IMG/VR virus record: IMGVR_UViG_3300021426_003004
Span: 6,973-70,972 of that record
Source: a virus
Lineage: Duplodnaviria; Caudoviricetes
DNA: 64,000 bases
Direction: 5' to 3' (one strand)
Numbering within the stretch: position 1 is the stretch's first letter; the number at the start of each line of letters is the position of its first letter. Below the pieces are notes generated by a model. The model was not told where the DNA came from and searched no databases. It saw nothing but the letters and a program-made list of their open reading frames with translations. Below are positions 4,595 to 64,000 of this stretch, piece by piece. The position numbers were made by a program, and so were the translations under genes.

Positions 4595-6847
4595 ATGGCA
4601 ACGACTGTCAATTATTCCGCGACGCTGGTCACTCGGAAAACCAATTATTCCTCGAACGGCAGCTCAAACAGCGCGGCGCAGGAATTCTATGAAGCCGGTT
4701 CAAACAACGTTGGTATCATCTGCTTTTCCGGCATGAACCTTGCGAATAAGGTCATACAGGAAATCATCTTCACCATTACGGCAAAGAAAGCCGGTTACGG
4801 CGAAGGCAGCACGAAAACGGTATATCTCCGGAAGGCAAACTACCAGAACAGTATTGCCTCCGGGGTGACCGGTTCCGGCTATGTCGCTGATGCGCTGGGA
4901 ACCTTCACCGGGCACTTCTACGGCAATACATCAGCCTATGAGCTGACCGGATCGCTGTACAACGCCGTCGCGGCTTATCTTGCTGCCGGGAACAACACGT
5001 TCACGATTTACAATCCCAACCCCAGCGCGTCGGCACAGGGCTATTCCTATAACTACCTGTCCTGGTCGGATGTCGTCATCACGGTGACGTATGAGGAAGC
5101 AGCCTCCCAGCCGAGCACCTCTGCCGCAACAGTCGCCATGGGTAGTGCAGTAACAATCTATACCAACCGCCCGAGTTCCGCTGTGACACACACAATATCC
5201 TACTGGTTCGGGAATACCAGCGGTGCGATCGCGACGAATGTCGGGGCTTCCGTTTCCTGGACTCCGCCTTTGTCGCTGGCAAGCCAGATCCCGAATGCCA
5301 CCAGCGGCGTGTGCACGATCACCTGTAACAGCTTTGTCAATGGAACGCTAACGGGAACACGAACGTGCACGATCACACTCACTGTCCCGTCAAGCGTTGT
5401 TCCGACCATATCCGCTGTAGCAGTGGACGATACGAACAGCACAGTTAAAACACGGATCGCAGCTTACGTGAAGAGCCTGAGCAAGCTGTCTGTGTCGATC
5501 ACGGCAGCAGGTGCCCGGGGCAGTACCATTTCTTCTTACCGCACAACACTGGATGGCGTGACCTATACAGCGGCATCTTTCACTGCGACGAAAGTGCTAT
5601 CGGCGGCTGGTTCCCTGACGCTTACGGTCACGGTTACGGACAGCCGTGGCCGGACAGCAACATATAGCACCACCATCACGGTGCTGGATTACGCCTATCC
5701 GTCGATCAGCCGTTTCACTGCCGAGCGCTGCAACAGTGGCGGCACAGCGGCACAGGTGGACGGCAACAAAGTCCGGTATAACCTGACAGGCAGTGGCTCC
5801 GCACTGAATAACCGGAACACACTCACCTGCACCGTCTATTACAAGCTGTCGACAGCATCGGCATGGACGCAAGCGGAGACTGTAACGCATTCTTCCTATG
5901 CTCTCAGCCAGACGAACAAGCTGATGAGCCAAACCTTTGATCCTTTGTACAGCTACAATTTGAAGGTTACGGTTTCGGACTACTTCTACTCAGTGGAGCA
6001 GATCATCAGTATCGGCACGAAGCAGGTGTTGCTGGACTTCCTTTCCAACGGCAACGGCATCGGTATTGGGAAGGTTGCGGAAACTAATGGCTACATCGAC
6101 TGCGGCTGGCCGCTGAAGCTGAGCACACCGCTGGCAATTGCTTACGGAGGCACGGGCTCGGTGAATGCCAATGCGGCGATCGCCAATCTCGGCGGCGTGA
6201 AGAAGTCCGGGGATACCATGACCGGAAACTTGAACATTCAGGGAACCCTGTATCCGTCACTGTGCCTATTGCCGACACAGGACGGCCAGACGAACCGGAT
6301 CGTGTTCGAGGGCAGTTATGTGGGTGCGGCATCCTTTGCCGCATGGGAGGACAGCACCGGCAATAATCGCCGGATGCTGGAAGTCCGGACAAAGGCCTAT
6401 GCGGCCAGTCTGGACAATGCGGTGATGGTCCGTGTCTGCGATGGCGGTACCTGGGGAAACTACCGGGTCTATCATGAGGGCATGGAAACCGTGATTCCGC
6501 TTTCAAAGGGAGGAACAGGCGGTACTTCCGCAGCGACAGCCCGGTCGAAAATCGGAGCCAACAATGCCAGCAACCTGACCACAGGCACACTGCCAGCGGC
6601 ACGGCTGCCTTTCAAAATCCAGTATGGGCAGACCAGCGTGACCGGTGTTGCGTGGACAACGGTTAGCCTGACAGCCGGGTTTACCGCAACCCCGACGATC
6701 ATTGTGTCGTATGCTGGCAACCCAACCTCCAGCGGTATTGCGGTGCTGAAAACCGGAAGTGAATCCACGACCAGCTTCCAGGTCTGTATGGCTGGATCCT
6801 CCGGTTCCGGCACACGGAAAGTGAACTGGATCGCGATCGGTACCTGA
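4595..6847 (+). CDS. DUF859-like siphophage minor structural/tail fibre protein with C-terminal small beta-sandwich (lectin-like) tip
   Basis: 750 aa, Ser/Thr-rich beta protein; SQIPNATSG..TITC, VTDSRGRT and GIGIGKVAE motifs; C-terminus KIQYGQ..VNWIAIG. Confidence 0.75.
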   Translation: MATTVNYSATLVTRKTNYSSNGSSNSAAQEFYEAGSNNVGIICFSGMNLANKVIQEIIFTITAKKAGYGEGSTKTVYLRKANYQNSIASGVTGSGYVADALGTFTGHFYGNTSAYELTGSLYNAVAAYLAAGNNTFTIYNPNPSASAQGYSYNYLSWSDVVITVTYEEAASQPSTSAATVAMGSAVTIYTNRPSSAVTHTISYWFGNTSGAIATNVGASVSWTPPLSLASQIPNATSGVCTITCNSFVNGTLTGTRTCTITLTVPSSVVPTISAVAVDDTNSTVKTRIAAYVKSLSKLSVSITAAGARGSTISSYRTTLDGVTYTAASFTATKVLSAAGSLTLTVTVTDSRGRTATYSTTITVLDYAYPSISRFTAERCNSGGTAAQVDGNKVRYNLTGSGSALNNRNTLTCTVYYKLSTASAWTQAETVTHSSYALSQTNKLMSQTFDPLYSYNLKVTVSDYFYSVEQIISIGTKQVLLDFLSNGNGIGIGKVAETNGYIDCGWPLKLSTPLAIAYGGTGSVNANAAIANLGGVKKSGDTMTGNLNIQGTLYPSLCLLPTQDGQTNRIVFEGSYVGAASFAAWEDSTGNNRRMLEVRTKAYAASLDNAVMVRVCDGGTWGNYRVYHEGMETVIPLSKGGTGGTSAATARSKIGANNASNLTTGTLPAARLPFKIQYGQTSVTGVAWTTVSLTAGFTATPTIIVSYAGNPTSSGIAVLKTGSESTTSFQVCMAGSSGSGTRKVNWIAIGT

Positions 6848-59023: not shown

Positions 59024-59055
59024 CTTGACTTTATGACCTTTTAGAGTGAGTAATG
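59024..59055 (+). promoter_or_regulatory. Class II bipartite promoter-like motif (further copies at 21971, 22206, 61154-61185 minus, 61481-61512 minus)
   Basis: CTTGACT, 13-nt spacer, GAGTG-AGTAATG. Confidence 0.55.
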
Positions 59056-59084
59056 TCCTACCAAAATCGAAGGAGGTATGGACC

Positions 59085-59930
59085 ATGACCGTAACTACCA
59101 ACACGACCGACCGCAAAGCGCTGGCTAAAGCCATGGCTGATGAACTGGGTACAACCGCTAAGTACATGGGGCCGCCCACATTTGGATACCAGGTTGGCGA
59201 CTACACTGTCGACCGGGACGGCAACATCGAGGGAGAAGATTTCGGAGCTCTGCAGGATTTCCTGACCCGGATCGGCTGTTTCCCGGAAGAGGAAGCTGCC
59301 CCGGCGGAGGAGCAGACGGAACCTGAACCCGAAACGACTGGGACGGTGGATCAGGTGAGCATTTCGGTACCCGCTGACGATTTGACAGCGCTGCAGTTGA
59401 AGAATCTGATCTTCATGCTGTACACCAAGCAGTACCTGATCGGAAAGATGACCGGCGGCGATCAGCTGAGCATCCCGGATACCTTAATCGCAAGACTGAT
59501 GGAGCAGACCCCGGAAACCACAGCGGATTTCATTCCTCTGCTGGATACCGCTAAGGAAGATGGCCTGACCGGATTTGATTTCGCAGACGGAAAGATCACC
59601 GTCACCTACCAGGCACATCCGGATGAGCCGGAACGGAACATGGTGTACGCCATGTTGACCGCCCGGATTCTGAAAGCGGCAAAGGAAGCGACCCGGGTTT
59701 TCCCGGAGCGTCAGGAACCCGCAAACGAGAAGTACTTCGCCCGTGCATGGCTGATGCGGATCGGGTACGGCGGTACTGATTCCAAAGCGGAGCGGAACCT
59801 TCTGCTGAAGCACCTGAAGGGGCACAGCGCTTTCCCGAACGACGATGCGGCTGAGAAGCACAAGGAGAAGTACGCGGCGATCCGGAAAGAGAAAAAGCTG
59901 GCGGCGCAGGAGGTGTCCTCCAATGACTGA
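59085..59930 (+). CDS. Conserved phage protein of the family often labelled 'virulence-related protein'
   Basis: RKALAKAMADELGTTAKYMGPPTFGYQVGDYTVD; NEKYFARAWLMRIGYGG..RNLLLKHLKGHSAF. Confidence 0.7.
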   Translation: MTVTTNTTDRKALAKAMADELGTTAKYMGPPTFGYQVGDYTVDRDGNIEGEDFGALQDFLTRIGCFPEEEAAPAEEQTEPEPETTGTVDQVSISVPADDLTALQLKNLIFMLYTKQYLIGKMTGGDQLSIPDTLIARLMEQTPETTADFIPLLDTAKEDGLTGFDFADGKITVTYQAHPDEPERNMVYAMLTARILKAAKEATRVFPERQEPANEKYFARAWLMRIGYGGTDSKAERNLLLKHLKGHSAFPNDDAAEKHKEKYAAIRKEKKLAAQEVSSND

Positions 59931-60450
59931 TGTCCAGAAGGCCCTTGCTGATTTGAAAGCCCGGCAGGAAGCCGGAGAACAGATGCCTTGCCCCCGGTGC
60001 GGGAAGGACACGATGAAGCCTGCCCTGTGCACGAACGCACTGAGCCGGGTTGCCGATGGGATCTTCGTGTGTGACGATTGCGGAACACAGGAAGCCCTAC
60101 TGGCATTCATGCAGAACCCAATGCCCGTGGATGAATGGGCATTTCTGAACCCTGATTTGCCCGATGTCGATTTCAAAGATCTCCCGGGCAAAGCAGTCTG
60201 GGAACAGATTCGGATGGATCACGGCCCGGCGCTGATCAGTATTTTCAAGCGCTGGACACAGGAACAGCCGGGAGCGGATTTCAAACCGTACCGCCGGGAA
60301 GCTATGAAACGCTGTCCCGGACTGACACAGATTTGGGACCGGCCTTTCCAAGCCATGTATGAAGTTTCTGATGGCCAGCTGATCCTGCGATTCAGGAACA
60401 CTGACGACGGTGTTGAGCTGACGGCAGACCTGATGGAAAACGACAAGTAA
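59923..60450 (+). CDS. Zn-finger hypothetical protein
   Basis: CPRCG..NALSR..VCDDCGTQEAL. Confidence 0.7.
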   Translation: MTDVQKALADLKARQEAGEQMPCPRCGKDTMKPALCTNALSRVADGIFVCDDCGTQEALLAFMQNPMPVDEWAFLNPDLPDVDFKDLPGKAVWEQIRMDHGPALISIFKRWTQEQPGADFKPYRREAMKRCPGLTQIWDRPFQAMYEVSDGQLILRFRNTDDGVELTADLMENDK

Positions 60451-60675
60451 GCCCCGGCGGATTTAGGAGCGGAGCAGCCAAGCGCTGCCCCGCCTTTTTC
60501 TGCGTTTGTCGCGGGCTGTCTGCCGCCTCTGGTTCATCGGTCGAATGAAAACCCGATCGCCAGCCGTGGCGGGCAACGTGGGCAAACGTGGCGGGAACAA
60601 GGAAAGCCGCCTCCGATTTGGAAGCGGCTGTAATTGTGTGCCCCTGCGGGCCTATTTCCCTGGTTGTGAAGGTCC

Positions 60676-61119
60676 TCACCAAGCGTATCCCCGGGCGATG
60701 CTTCTTTCCAGCGCTGGCTTCAGAACCGTCTTGATTTGGGAGCCGAGGCCGAGTTTGCGGTAGGCATCGGCGATGCCTTCGTAGTACTGCGTGTGCGGCG
60801 GTGATTTCCGGATCATCTTCATCAGGTAGATCATGCCTTCGACCATTGTGCCGTCATTCATGTGTACCCACCAGCGATCCTTGATGTAGTAGCTGGGGTA
60901 TCCTTCGTAGCGATCCAGCATCTGTTCATCCCGCTTGTTGATTTCCCAGACAGCGACCGGTACGCGATTCCGCTGATCACCGGTTTCTTCGACTGTGGCG
61001 TGGAGGTAGAACTCCAACCGGGCTCCGCTGATGTACCCGGTGCCGATCAGCTTGGCCTCCGGGCAGCGAACAGCCATCTGTTCCTGGACCATGTTTGATC
61101 CATAAGCGATGTATTTCAT
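60676..61119 (-). CDS. Gamma-glutamylcyclotransferase (AIG2-like) family protein
   Basis: MKYIAYGSNM..QMAVRCP, VPVAVWEI..LDRYEGYPSYY. Confidence 0.9.
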   Translation of the reverse strand: MKYIAYGSNMVQEQMAVRCPEAKLIGTGYISGARLEFYLHATVEETGDQRNRVPVAVWEINKRDEQMLDRYEGYPSYYIKDRWWVHMNDGTMVEGMIYLMKMIRKSPPHTQYYEGIADAYRKLGLGSQIKTVLKPALERSIARGYAW

Positions 61120-61187
61120 AGCGCCTCCTGATTCAAGAGCCTGTGGCTCGTTTCTATCTTCACCCTTTTCAGGGGAAAACGCAAGTG

Positions 61188-61439
61188 TCAATCGTTGACT
61201 GTGTATTCGTACAGGTCAGCCATGTCGAGAACCGTAACCCGGTAATCCGGGCGGTAGCCGAACGGATCGCGTTCGTACAGTTCGTACTTGTCGATTTCAG
61301 AGCTGACACAATCTTCGATGAACTCCGCCCGGGCATCGCTGTCCGGGAACCGGATCTGATTGTCTTCTTCCAGTTCGGTTGCCGCCTGATCGATGTAGTA
61401 GCGGATGTCAGCGTCGGTAATAACTGCGGTGATCTTCAT
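61188..61439 (-). CDS. Small acidic hypothetical protein (83 aa)
   Basis: RBS GAAGGAGG; MKITAVITDADIRYYIDQAA. Confidence 0.65.
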   Translation of the reverse strand: MKITAVITDADIRYYIDQAATELEEDNQIRFPDSDARAEFIEDCVSSEIDKYELYERDPFGYRPDYRVTVLDMADLYEYTVND

Positions 61440-61545
61440 TCGAAAGCCTCCTTCTTGATTTGAAAGCCCTGCGGGCTGTCCATCCATCACTCTGCCGCCG
61501 CCGGAAGTCAAGTGAATGTGTACTTCCGGCGGCGCTTTTTCCTGG

Positions 61546-61749
61546 TTAATCTGCGTACTCGATTTCCAAGACTCCATCGTCGCCGGGATTGATCGCTGTG
61601 ATGCTTTTCATCATCAGGTCGAAGTGGATGTCGCCGGAAACTGTGCTGTCGAAAACCGTGACGGTCTCGTCGCCGCCGAGGTATTTCAGGATTCGAACCG
61701 GGGCGTTGAAGTTGAACTCGGGGTTGTTGAGAAGCTCGTGGATGTACAT
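61546..61749 (-). CDS. Small hypothetical protein (67 aa)
   Basis: RBS AAGGAGG; MYIHELLNNPEF. Confidence 0.65.
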   Translation of the reverse strand: MYIHELLNNPEFNFNAPVRILKYLGGDETVTVFDSTVSGDIHFDLMMKSITAINPGDDGVLEIEYAD

Positions 61750-61767
61750 TCTGATTCCTCCTTGATT

Positions 61768-61995
61768 TCAAAGCTGTGCCCGAAGGCGAAGGGTGATGTT
61801 GCTGATTTCCCGGGGAGTCATCCCGGTTATCTCCAGATCGTTCCGACCGTTGATGGTCGCCATCAGGATTTCGAAGAGCTCGATTTGGAAGCTGGCGGCG
61901 TGGTTGTCCGGGTCTTCCATCCGGAACTGTGCCCAGTCCCGCTTCAGGTCTGCGACCGTGTATTCCCGGTCGTCGTTCAGGTCGATGAACCTCAT
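61768..61995 (-). CDS. Small hypothetical protein (75 aa)
   Basis: RBS AAGGAGG; MRFIDLNDDREYTV. Confidence 0.65.
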   Translation of the reverse strand: MRFIDLNDDREYTVADLKRDWAQFRMEDPDNHAASFQIELFEILMATINGRNDLEITGMTPREISNITLRLRAQL

Positions 61996-62010
61996 GGTGC
62001 GTACCTCCTT

Positions 62011-62084
62011 CTTGATTTGGGAGCCTGTGGCTCCGGGCGAGGGTTCCCAGCAGGAGCCCTCAACCGGAACCGCCCGGCGGCGGT
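62011..62084 (-). repeat. Three-hairpin intergenic repeat, copy C
   Basis: Plus strand CTTGATTTGGGAGCCTGTGGCTCC..AGGGTTCC..GGAGCCCT..ACCGCC..GGCGGT. Confidence 0.8.
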
Positions 62085-62094
62085 ACCGTGTGCG

Positions 62095-62688
62095 TCAGCG
62101 GATGGTGAAGTACTTACCCTTGGCTCTGATTTCAAAGCTGCGCTTGCCGCCTTTGCCCCAGACCCGGGTCATCTTTTCGATGTCTTCCAGCTTGCAGGTC
62201 TTCATCTTGGGCTGTTTCCGGAGCCAGCGCAGGGCGATCGATTTGTAAGCGTCGCCGACTTCCTCCCGGCGGGTCTCTTCGTGTGCCTTGTAGCGTTCCC
62301 ACTGGAGCTTACTGATCCGGCGGCCTTCTTCCATGTCGGTGTACCAGCTGTGGTTGCGGTTGCCGCCGATCCAAGCCCACTCGATTTGGAAGCGTGGCTC
62401 GAGGCGGTTGTTCCAAACGGTGCCGTCCCAGTTGTCGTAGACCCGTGTGTCCGGTGCGGCCTTTCCGACCGTCAGGCAGATGGTGTCGCCGTTGTACCCG
62501 TCCTCGTCCCGTGCCCAGCGGTGTTCCCGGGTCAGAAGAACCCGGAGGATTTCAGAGCCGTTGGTCAGGTCGATGTGTGCGATCTCGCCTTGGCTCCCGT
62601 TCATGGTGTCCGGGAAAATGGTGTACCCCTGATTCAGGAGCTCGGTGACCTTCTGGGTGTAGATGTTGCGGATATCCTGCTTTTTCAT
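62095..62688 (-). CDS. Hypothetical protein (197 aa)
   Basis: RBS AAGGAGGG; MKKQDIRNIYTQKVTELLNQGY. Confidence 0.7.
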   Translation of the reverse strand: MKKQDIRNIYTQKVTELLNQGYTIFPDTMNGSQGEIAHIDLTNGSEILRVLLTREHRWARDEDGYNGDTICLTVGKAAPDTRVYDNWDGTVWNNRLEPRFQIEWAWIGGNRNHSWYTDMEEGRRISKLQWERYKAHEETRREEVGDAYKSIALRWLRKQPKMKTCKLEDIEKMTRVWGKGGKRSFEIRAKGKYFTIR

Positions 62689-62717
62689 GGTGTGCCCTCC
62701 TTGGCGCTGTGCGCCTG

Positions 62718-62793
62718 TTGATTTAGGAGCCTGTGGCTCCGGGTGAAGGCTCCCGATTCGAAAGCCCTCAACCGGAACCGCCGGTGTGGCGGT
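62718..62793 (-). repeat. Three-hairpin intergenic repeat, copy B
   Basis: Plus strand TTGATTTAGGAGCCTGTGGCTCC..AAGGCT..AGCCCT..ACCGCC..GGCGGT. Confidence 0.8.
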
Positions 62794-62800
62794 GGGCGGC

Positions 62801-63064
62801 TTACCAGATCCCGCCCGTCCGGGTCAGGTGTGCCGCCCGATCCAGATTCAGGAGCTCGGCGGCGACCTGTTCCTCGGTCAGGGAGCCGAGGGTGCAGACC
62901 CGCTTGCTGTCCCGGAAAACGAACCAGCTGTGCCCGGTGACCCCTTGCCGAGCCCAGTGATACTCGGTTTCGTCGTAGGGGTGGATGCTGGAAACGCAGG
63001 GTGTGCCCGTGCGGGGGTCGGTCTTGATTCCAAAGCGCTGGCGGTCGACGGTGATGGTCTTCAT
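62801..63064 (-). CDS. Hypothetical protein (87 aa)
   Basis: RBS AAAGGA; MKTITVDRQRFGIKTDP. Confidence 0.65.
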   Translation of the reverse strand: MKTITVDRQRFGIKTDPRTGTPCVSSIHPYDETEYHWARQGVTGHSWFVFRDSKRVCTLGSLTEEQVAAELLNLDRAAHLTRTGGIW

Positions 63065-63094
63065 GGTGTGTTCCTTTCCGGGCAAAAAGCCCTG

Positions 63095-63169
63095 CTTGAT
63101 TTAGGAGCCGTGTGGCTCCCGGGAAGGTTCCCGATCTGGGAGCCCTCCGGGGAACCGCCCAGCGGCGGT
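63095..63169 (-). repeat. Three-hairpin intergenic repeat, copy A
   Basis: Plus strand CTTGATTTAGGAGCCGTGTGGCTCC..AAGGTTCCC..GGGAGCCCT..ACCGCC..GGCGGT. Confidence 0.8.
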
Positions 63170-63187
63170 CGGTGTGTGCCCGCCGGA

Positions 63188-64000
63188 TCAGGAAGCCCGG
63201 CGGGTGGTCTCGGCACCGTTCCTCCAAGCGGCGTTCCCGGGCAGGTGCTTCAGGAGGTGTGTCCGGGCGGTCTTGAACTCGTCGCCGTTCAGCCCCAGCC
63301 GGAGGAGCCAGCACCGGAAGGTGTAGGCGGGGTTGTCGGTTTCCGGGCGGCGGGGGCTGGCGCTGGCGACCGTCAGGGCTTGGTGGGAAATCGCAAGGCA
63401 AAGCTGGATGTACCCCTTGACCTCCCCGGCGTGGAGGGTCGAGTTGAAAGCCCGGAACTCGATGGTGCCCTTCTGCCAAACGGCGTGGAGGTTCAGGAGG
63501 TGGTACCGGGAGGGGTCGTAGTGCTGGTGTGCGTGCCATTCCCAGTTCCGGTCGTCGTACCAAATCCGGGCAAGCTCCTCGGAGGAGGTCGGCTTCCGGC
63601 GGTTCAGGGTGGCGAGGAAGTCGGGGTCGACGGGCTGGCACCACCGTTCCCGGCGGGCGGGGGAAATCTGCAGGGCTTGGGTCAGGAGGTCTTCCTTGGC
63701 GTTCACCAAGTTGACCAAGTTGCGCAGGGTGCGGGGGGTGTGGCTCCCCAGCCCGACGTGCACGTGGATGCCGCAGGAGGGGTCGGCGTGTGCCCCCGCC
63801 GCCCGGAGCGCCCGGACGCAGGCCTGCACCGTTTCGAGGTCTTCCCAGCGGCACACCGGGGTGACGAACTCTGTGCCTTGGTCCCGGGGTCCGGCGATGC
63901 TCCCGTCGGAAACGCACTTCCAGCGGCGGCCTTCCCGGTCGATGGCGACCCAAGCGTCGTAGGAACCGCCTTCGTGGCGCACCTCGGCGGTGTAGATCGG
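63188..64000 (-). CDS. Putative amidoligase (COOH-NH2 ligase type 2 / Amidoligase_2), 5' end beyond the window
   Basis: SDGSI, EFVTP, SCGIHVHVG, RYHLLNL, TIEFRAFNSTLH. Confidence 0.9.
   Translation of the reverse strand, partial: PIYTAEVRHEGGSYDAWVAIDREGRRWKCVSDGSIAGPRDQGTEFVTPVCRWEDLETVQACVRALRAAGAHADPSCGIHVHVGLGSHTPRTLRNLVNLVNAKEDLLTQALQISPARRERWCQPVDPDFLATLNRRKPTSSEELARIWYDDRNWEWHAHQHYDPSRYHLLNLHAVWQKGTIEFRAFNSTLHAGEVKGYIQLCLAISHQALTVASASPRRPETDNPAYTFRCWLLRLGLNGDEFKTARTHLLKHLPGNAAWRNGAETTRRAS

Follow-up and report, generated by a model that had tools for sequence, protein, structure and literature searches.

Between the small early genes of a gut phage lies a repeated RNA element of 75 nt that is a genuine, conserved and lineage-restricted structured spacer. 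Most likely it helps to cut or to stabilise the long message gene by gene. As to how this is brought about, we tentatively put forward, as one possibility among several, a putative non-catalytic intercistronic module for RNA processing and stability. The element was studied in a window of 64,000 nucleotides, the last 64 kb of a 70,972-bp IMG/VR record (IMGVR_UViG_3300021426_003004), the end of the window being also the end of the contig.

The element serves an early operon that reads from an amidoligase gene to a gene encoding a GGCT/AIG2 gamma-glutamyl cyclotransferase (Table 1). The operon proteins of 87, 197, 75, 67 and 83 aa do not belong to any Pfam family. An earlier note on this DNA, made by reading the letters, had described three full copies and a partial copy of the element, each full copy being placed between a stop codon and the next ribosome-binding site. 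The four copies were found where the note had put them, on the minus strand, which is the mRNA strand, and the position between stop codon and ribosome-binding site was verified for copies A, B and C. The tail of the element also occurs alone, as the note had claimed, AAATCAAG abutting the ribosome-binding sites at 61454-61461 and 61761-61768. What had been overlooked is that the AAATCAA tail is part of a word of 10-13 nt, G-CTYYNRAATC-RR.

Table 1. Position of the element, of the surrounding genes and of associated signals in the window and in related phage loci
Feature	Position	Strand	Remarks
Early operon served by the element	60676..63982	minus	gene order amidoligase, 87 aa, 197 aa, 75 aa, 67 aa, 83 aa, GGCT/AIG2
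Amidoligase (Amidoligase_2) gene	63188-63982	minus	cut by the contig end
Copy C	63090..63174	minus	amidoligase stop (63188) to ATG of the 87-aa gene (63064); R1 85.4 bits; fold z -3.5
Copy B	62713..62797	minus	stop of the 87-aa gene (62801) to ATG of the 197-aa gene (62688); R1 86.7 bits; fold z -6.2
Copy A	62005..62089	minus	stop of the 197-aa gene (62095) to ATG of the 75-aa gene (61995); R1 75.3 bits; fold z -1.9
Internal promoter-like site TTGACT-N16-TGATGGAT	61482..61511	minus	within a 12-bp inverted repeat
Partial copy	61128..61149	minus	H3-type hairpin GAGCC-ACA-GGCTC and word CTCTTGAATC, directly 5' of the ribosome-binding site of the GGCT gene
GGCT/AIG2 gamma-glutamyl cyclotransferase gene	60676-61122	minus	last gene of the operon
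Terminator-like hairpin	60605..60629	minus	convergence point; a word copy forms part of the 5' arm and the loop
Two convergent genes (294 aa, 201 aa)	59046..60450	plus	word on the antisense strand, at conserved positions
Word array, 17 exact copies of GCTYYNRAATCRR	59776..63108	minus only	17 against 0.58 expected; none on the plus strand
Word modules in relatives	L001 6690-9413; L002 6792-9767; L039 6876-11385		
Promoter-like box in relatives	L039 5773-5802; L001 about 5728-5760		ahead of the amidoligase gene
Hammerheads of L001	6740-6800, 7150-7215		between amidoligase-operon genes
Hammerheads of L002	6715-6774, 7130-7184, 7698-7752		between amidoligase-operon genes

On the mRNA strand the element reads hairpin H1, GGUUCC, irregular helix H2, GGAGCC, a loop of 3-4 nt, GGCUCC, (U/C)AAAUCAA and the Shine-Dalgarno sequence, and in some copies only, a further small hairpin stands before the latter. 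Full copies begin 7-17 nt 3' of the stop codon. H1, a hairpin of 6 bp, is small and variable and lies just past the upstream stop codon. H2 is an irregular helix of about 15-20 bp with one conserved pyrimidine-C mismatch; the earlier note had taken this second hairpin for a short one, which proved wrong, as H2 is one long helix. Both GCGGUUCC, between H1 and H2, and GGAGCC, after H2, are almost invariant across copies. GGAGCC has two possible partners. Pairing with the upstream GGUUCC lengthens H2, and pairing with the downstream GGCUCC, the first half of the word, makes the third hairpin, H3; the partner found in the minimum-energy fold differs among the window copies. Single-stranded AAAUCAAG follows H3 and runs into the Shine-Dalgarno sequence. 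In copy B, the minimum-energy fold contains H1 (ACCGCC 62793-62788 paired with GGCGGT 62782-62777), H2 (62776-62738) and H3 (GGAGCC 62740-62735, loop ACA, GGCTCC 62731-62726) together, the apical loop of H2 carries a second copy of the word (62753-62765), and the tail TAAATCAA (62725-62718) leads to the small hairpin, the ribosome-binding site and the ATG. The order in copy C is H1, GGUUCC, H2, GGAGCC, H3, the word and AAG, and the tail of copy A continues directly into AAGGAGG. The three window copies, direct repeats that are 85-90% alike, are not a product of chance, as judged from their scores with the covariance model R1 (75-87 bits) and from the fold z-scores of the sense strand against shuffled sequences (Table 1); antisense z-scores are -2.3, -1.6 and -2.3 for copies C, B and A.

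Blastn searches with the operon led to Clostridia phages from the gut. PV036419.1 and PV036454.1, two of these, are classified under Ca. Heliusvirales; in both the amidoligase operon is syntenic, and in PV036419.1 alone it ends with a GGCT gene. Searches with the amidoligase protein led to 25 viral and 37 genomic loci. R1 was built on H2 and its flanks and used with a cut-off of 40 bits; 35 copies, all of them on the strand of the operon, exceeded it, and they come from 19 loci of related phages. When R1 was run on 91 further loci just one additional copy was obtained, from a locus found by the word scan (L088), and the element is therefore restricted to one lineage. A wide scan with the pattern GCGGTTCC...GGGAGCC brought up 80 loci without a true copy, so that its matches were due to chance.

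Evidence for the fold comes mainly from H2. In the R1-fitted alignment, a kind of alignment which favours structure, 85.7% of the H2 cells are paired as compared to 71% after shuffling. Changes on both sides are seen at 11 of the 15 pairs, the covariation amounts to 0.435 as compared to 0.156, with none of 500 shuffles as good, and all slid registers score much lower. The basal stem alone comes as CCGG/CCGG, CCUCAG/CUGAGG, CUUCAG/CUGAAG and CCC/GGG. G-U pairs are frequent, one position having 22 of them and other positions 12 and 7, and can pair on the sense strand only; the fold of H2 thus belongs to the sense strand. Since the copies are lineage-restricted and fairly similar, part of this conservation reflects shared ancestry. 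The earlier note had seen stems that were kept while loops varied. Inside the window this pattern is weak, the stems being almost identical; the relatives, searched with a covariance model as the note had proposed, provide the compensatory changes. The statement that the element has no named family held at every threshold. Gathering and permissive Rfam scans of the window, of the element alone and of 14 related loci gave no family for it, and cmscan of 121 nt with E values up to 10 returned only noise (L31-leader, mir-2004, sR10) and no hammerhead. Covariance models of twister, twister-sister, pistol, hatchet and HDV-like ribozymes did not match either, and nothing came up when the window and 12 loci were scanned at the gathering threshold.

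In relatives the same junctions are occupied by hammerhead ribozymes. PV036419.1, PV036454.1 and many further loci have type I hammerheads, predicted from sequence, in their spacers. All 33 distinct sequences are on the operon strand and have an intact CUGANGA, GAA, A15.1-U16.1 and a non-G H17, with compensatory changes in stems II and III; Rfam gives them 15.7 bits against a gathering score of 34, and they were confirmed instead by core and covariation. Their layout is CCCGC-CUGANGA-stem II-GAAA-stem III-GUC, where the cut is expected, and then GCGGG. At the junction of the amidoligase gene with g94, the first family of small genes, three loci have a hammerhead (L045, L019, L001), and the element stands there in the window, L039 and L014. 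The element and the hammerheads end in a common 3' flank, UC-GCGGGAGCC, followed by a spacer and the word. In one clade, that of L025, the element reads CCCCUGA-hairpin-UC-GCGGGAGCC and resembles a hammerhead without A6-A14 and stem II. The leaders behind the hammerheads contain an H3-like hairpin, GGAAGC/GCUUCC, only 2 nt from the expected new 5' end. As a side observation, in L001 and L002 the hammerhead core takes its U4-G5-A6 from the UGA stop codon of the upstream gene.

Hammerheads are lacking in the window phage, and CTGANGA is absent from the window spacers. Compared with the hammerhead families RF00163, RF00008 and RF02276, the element shares only the UC-GCGGG-type 3' flank. It agrees with the clustered phage and prophage hammerheads (Perreault et al. 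2011, PMC3088659) in genomic slots, operon type, strand and 3' flank, but the window copies lack CUGANGA, GAAA, stem II and the three-way junction: in place of stems I, II and III with an NUH before stem I they consist of H1 and one continuous helix. For want of core, stem II and three-way junction the window copies cannot be hammerheads, and their visible anatomy would not lead one to expect self-cleavage. The element is probably a functional analogue of the phage hammerheads, and hammerhead-derived. Hammerheads that occur in clusters in prophages are believed to divide polycistronic RNA into pieces the size of single genes (PMC3088659), and the purpose of self-cleaving ribozymes between certain bacterial and phage genes is still an open question (PMC6765202). 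Junctions that are filled either by a hammerhead or by a helix module which looks protein-dependent amount to a natural swap experiment. Should both devices turn out to give messages of one gene each whose 5' end is protected by a hairpin, what phage hammerheads are for could be tested directly.

According to the reading that we tentatively prefer, the element would do the job of the hammerhead without catalysis. The double-strand-specific RNase III of the host would cut H2, as it does in T7 and SP82 early RNA. After the cut, H1 would block 3' exonucleases on the upstream message. The freed GGAGCC could then refold with the GGCUCC of the word into a 5'-terminal hairpin, which would protect the downstream single-gene message and leave its ribosome-binding site open. 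The near-identical direct repeats may in addition serve passively as crossover points for the loss or exchange of cassettes.

H2 has the shape of an RNase III substrate, a helix of roughly two turns, or 16-20 bp, of double-stranded RNA with only small mismatches. It comprises 15 modelled pairs, up to 3 GGUUCC/GGAGCC pairs and one conserved mismatch. Pairing of the H3 type is enriched at the leader copies of the word, with a mean of 3.9 pairs versus 2.4 in controls. Classic RNase III targets are described in PMC4838370 (refs 19, 20) as stable stem-loops with small bulges, SP82 early RNA being one of them. The T7 and SP82 sites, as cited there (Panganiban and Whiteley 1983; Mitra and Bechhofer 1994), are similar repeated irregular stem-loops between early cistrons, and the helix of the element likewise measures about two turns with small mismatches; no sequence similarity is claimed. 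In contrast, the flanking hairpins of the element and its invariant GCGGUUCC and GGAGCC have no described counterpart. The near-invariance of the two motifs exceeds what a plain RNase III helix needs, which hints at sequence-specific recognition or a switch. Several junctions of the same operons have only the word and a ribosome-binding site and no helix, hence processing is not needed everywhere. The earlier note had offered an RNA-level reading, and this gains indirect support from the conserved fold, the compensatory changes, the sense-only G-U pairs and the replacement of hammerheads in relatives.

Cutting need not take place at all. The element might be a hammerhead relic that persists as stable hairpins with no endonucleolytic step, and these would stop 3' exonucleases, uncouple translation and set relative expression, much as REP-type intercistronic stabilisers do. 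The conservation of helices with no conserved unpaired core would suit such a spacer, as would the clade that resembles a hammerhead without its core and the placement of H1 shortly past the stop codon. We nevertheless regard this as rather unlikely: the element lies exactly at the sites where relatives have active-looking ribozymes, arguing that a cut is wanted there, and the overlap of H2 and H3 on GGAGCC suggests refolding after a cut.

The word has a distribution of its own. The array begins at the 3' end of the amidoligase gene, crosses the operon and continues antisense through the convergent genes. Leaders contain copies of the word, as do the loops of H2 and of the convergence-point hairpin; others are in minus-strand genes, in all three frames, or antisense within both plus-strand convergent genes. 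Two related phage records filed as complete contain 17 versus 0 and 14 versus 0 copies per strand, 30 of the 31 lying within about 3 kb, and in 63 kb of clusters 166 exact copies were counted on one strand and 0 on the other. Each phage has 14-21 copies within a module of 3-5 kb. Copies inside genes occupy orthologous positions with near-invariant third codon positions, the antisense copies included. At nt 109-118 of the 201-aa gene, for instance, the word is present in 14 of 14 orthologues, and the third-position identity is 1.0 versus a mean of 0.74. Because of the antisense copies, a function in sense mRNA only cannot explain the word. It is selected even through coding DNA of both orientations, in a widespread group of gut phages.

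This raises the possibility, in our estimation an unlikely one, that the word and not the hairpins is the functional unit. A phage factor, e.g. a nickase, would read CTYYNRAATC on one DNA strand, and the three-hairpin element would be merely a spacer that happens to display two copies of it. The one-strand counts in clusters and whole genomes speak for this, as does the orthologous and synonymous-site conservation, even antisense in the two convergent genes; host genomes are not enriched in the word. Moreover, there is a precedent in phage tf, with 14 nick sites TACT/RTGMC on one strand, at similar positions in relatives (PMC3517423). Like such a nick-site word, CTYYNRAATC is asymmetric, confined to one strand and conserved in position. 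The nick words of T5, phiKMV-like phages and tf (PMC3517423) are the closest precedent, being likewise short, asymmetric and one-stranded and located inside and between genes. They are, however, spread genome-wide, whereas CTYYNRAATC is far denser (17 copies packed into 3.4 kb, in a 3-5 kb module) and has leader copies that also take part in an RNA hairpin. Further objections are that elements of the L025 clade without the word in H2 still keep the helix, and that H2 covaries independently of the word.

Other explanations of the word were discarded. It is not a host signal (boxA, Chi or an uptake sequence), for host metagenome-assembled genomes hold it at about chance level outside the phage contig. 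A trans-acting hammerhead with arms matching the word would have a stem I arm of only 2-3 bp, and CUGANGA...GAAAYYYNRR was absent from the window record and from the records of four related phages, of which two are filed as complete and the others rated 96-100% complete. Reading the Y/R degeneracy as a sign of a guide RNA or of wobble pairing fails as C0 and A7 do not tolerate wobble partners; no internal hairpin covariation was found within the word. A ParB-parS array was dismissed, the 'ParB-like partition protein' of relatives being a ParB_N-DNA methylase fusion, and so was a promoter of a phage RNA polymerase, the replication module having no RNA polymerase gene. The sigma-A-like box upstream of one leader copy puts the word inside the leader.

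Gene content between amidoligase and GGCT varies among the relatives. Contigs of related phages from animal-gut RNA libraries, whose runs were examined as contigs and in which depth is no evidence of expression, have precisely one cassette missing and are joined at the repeats (61119>61756, 62024>62733, 62694>63171). The gain and loss of genes at repeat boundaries, which the earlier note had considered, is thereby borne out. The integron-like recombination it had suggested for this is not: on reading the copies by eye no attC-type RYYYAAC/GTTRRRY cores were seen, no IntI integrase or recombinase was present among the neighbours scanned against Pfam or PHROGs, and direct repeats as similar as these suffice for ordinary homologous recombination. 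Cassette turnover fits homologous shuffling of the PeSL type, with no need for a site-specific recombinase, and not integron chemistry.

In T4-type PeSL cassettes (PMC2839356, PMC4122927) repeats flank small early genes and the indels or replacements of relatives end there, and the same is true of the element. It is nonetheless improbable that homology for shuffling small early genes is the main role under selection. The missing single cassettes with joints at the repeats and the different gene sets at these boundaries are in line with such a recombination handle, and so is the association of the element mostly with the 75-aa gene (11 of 14 distinct upstream regions). DNA homology alone, however, leaves the compensatory changes of the RNA helix and the G-U pairs unexplained, and no recombinase is linked. 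PeSLs, moreover, consist of an early promoter and a terminator stem-loop, whereas the element has neither promoter nor U-tract and shows RNA-type covariation. No promoter-like or sense terminator-like site was detected in the three copies. Two hits of the scan, each a hairpin with a T-run (62703-62715, 61137-61149), are on the plus (antisense) strand, and the promoter-like box within the operon is separate from the copies.

Very improbable, finally, is a new self-cleaving RNA, be it a minimal hammerhead derivative or a new ribozyme class in a ribozyme-associated gene context. Its positional interchange with hammerheads invites the idea, and pistol was discovered through gene-context association (PMC4604425), which also provided the first hint of twister (PMC6765202); the invariant GCGGUUCC and GGAGCC, the conserved mismatch, a conserved G-U pair and the missing Rfam family could be cited as well. 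Yet nearly all conserved letters are in plain helices, and we found neither a conserved junction nor a conserved internal loop or pseudoknot. L022 and L023 do not have the internal loop seen in window copies A and B, and this, together with the lack of a conserved unpaired core, makes a ribozyme unlikely. The hammerhead catalytic G8, G12, A9, A13 and A14 are missing, too. We would hardly expect, therefore, that in gut phages of this group a self-cleaving RNA has replaced the hammerheads of the ribozyme-associated amidoligase operons and shares one processing code with the word around it. As the element came to light through the context logic that had led to pistol, it is all the same a cheap candidate for a self-cleavage assay. 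A T-loop or tRNA mimic was rejected as the equivalent of G53-C61 is missing, and an RNase P reading of the GCC tail as hammerhead flanks carry GCC too.

Some observations concern the neighbourhood of the operon. The promoter-like box TTGACT-N16-TGATGRAT is kept among relatives, where it stands before the amidoligase gene; its place in the window is the middle of the operon. The leader behind it again shows a hairpin, the word and a ribosome-binding site (g83, upstream class PROM). As to a possible physical end of the genome upstream of the amidoligase gene, three contigs end in one C-rich tract, each at a different base. From the methylase gene to the amidoligase promoter extends a tract of 300-600 bp of GC-rich short iterated repeats (L039 5400-5700, L001 5140-5560, L002 5030-5560, L046 1-200), and several contigs break in or beside the tract. 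In PV036419.1 the amidoligase CDS is annotated across the tract and probably begins, as annotated, too far upstream. The same record has a tRNA gene (60 bits) on the minus strand (L001 4955-5025), with the methylase gene on one side and the GC-rich repeats on the other. The protein encoded at 4057-5316 of L039 (minus strand) is a fusion of ParB_N and an N6_N4 DNA methyltransferase and has the position of the 'ParB-like partition protein' of PV036419.1 and PV036454.1; it is probably not a partition protein. The 294-aa convergent gene of the window (59046-59930, plus strand) has no Pfam family and matches the PHROG phrog_2443 of the amidoligase family with an E value of 4e-36, and its product is perhaps a second, diverged protein of the amidoligase type in the module.
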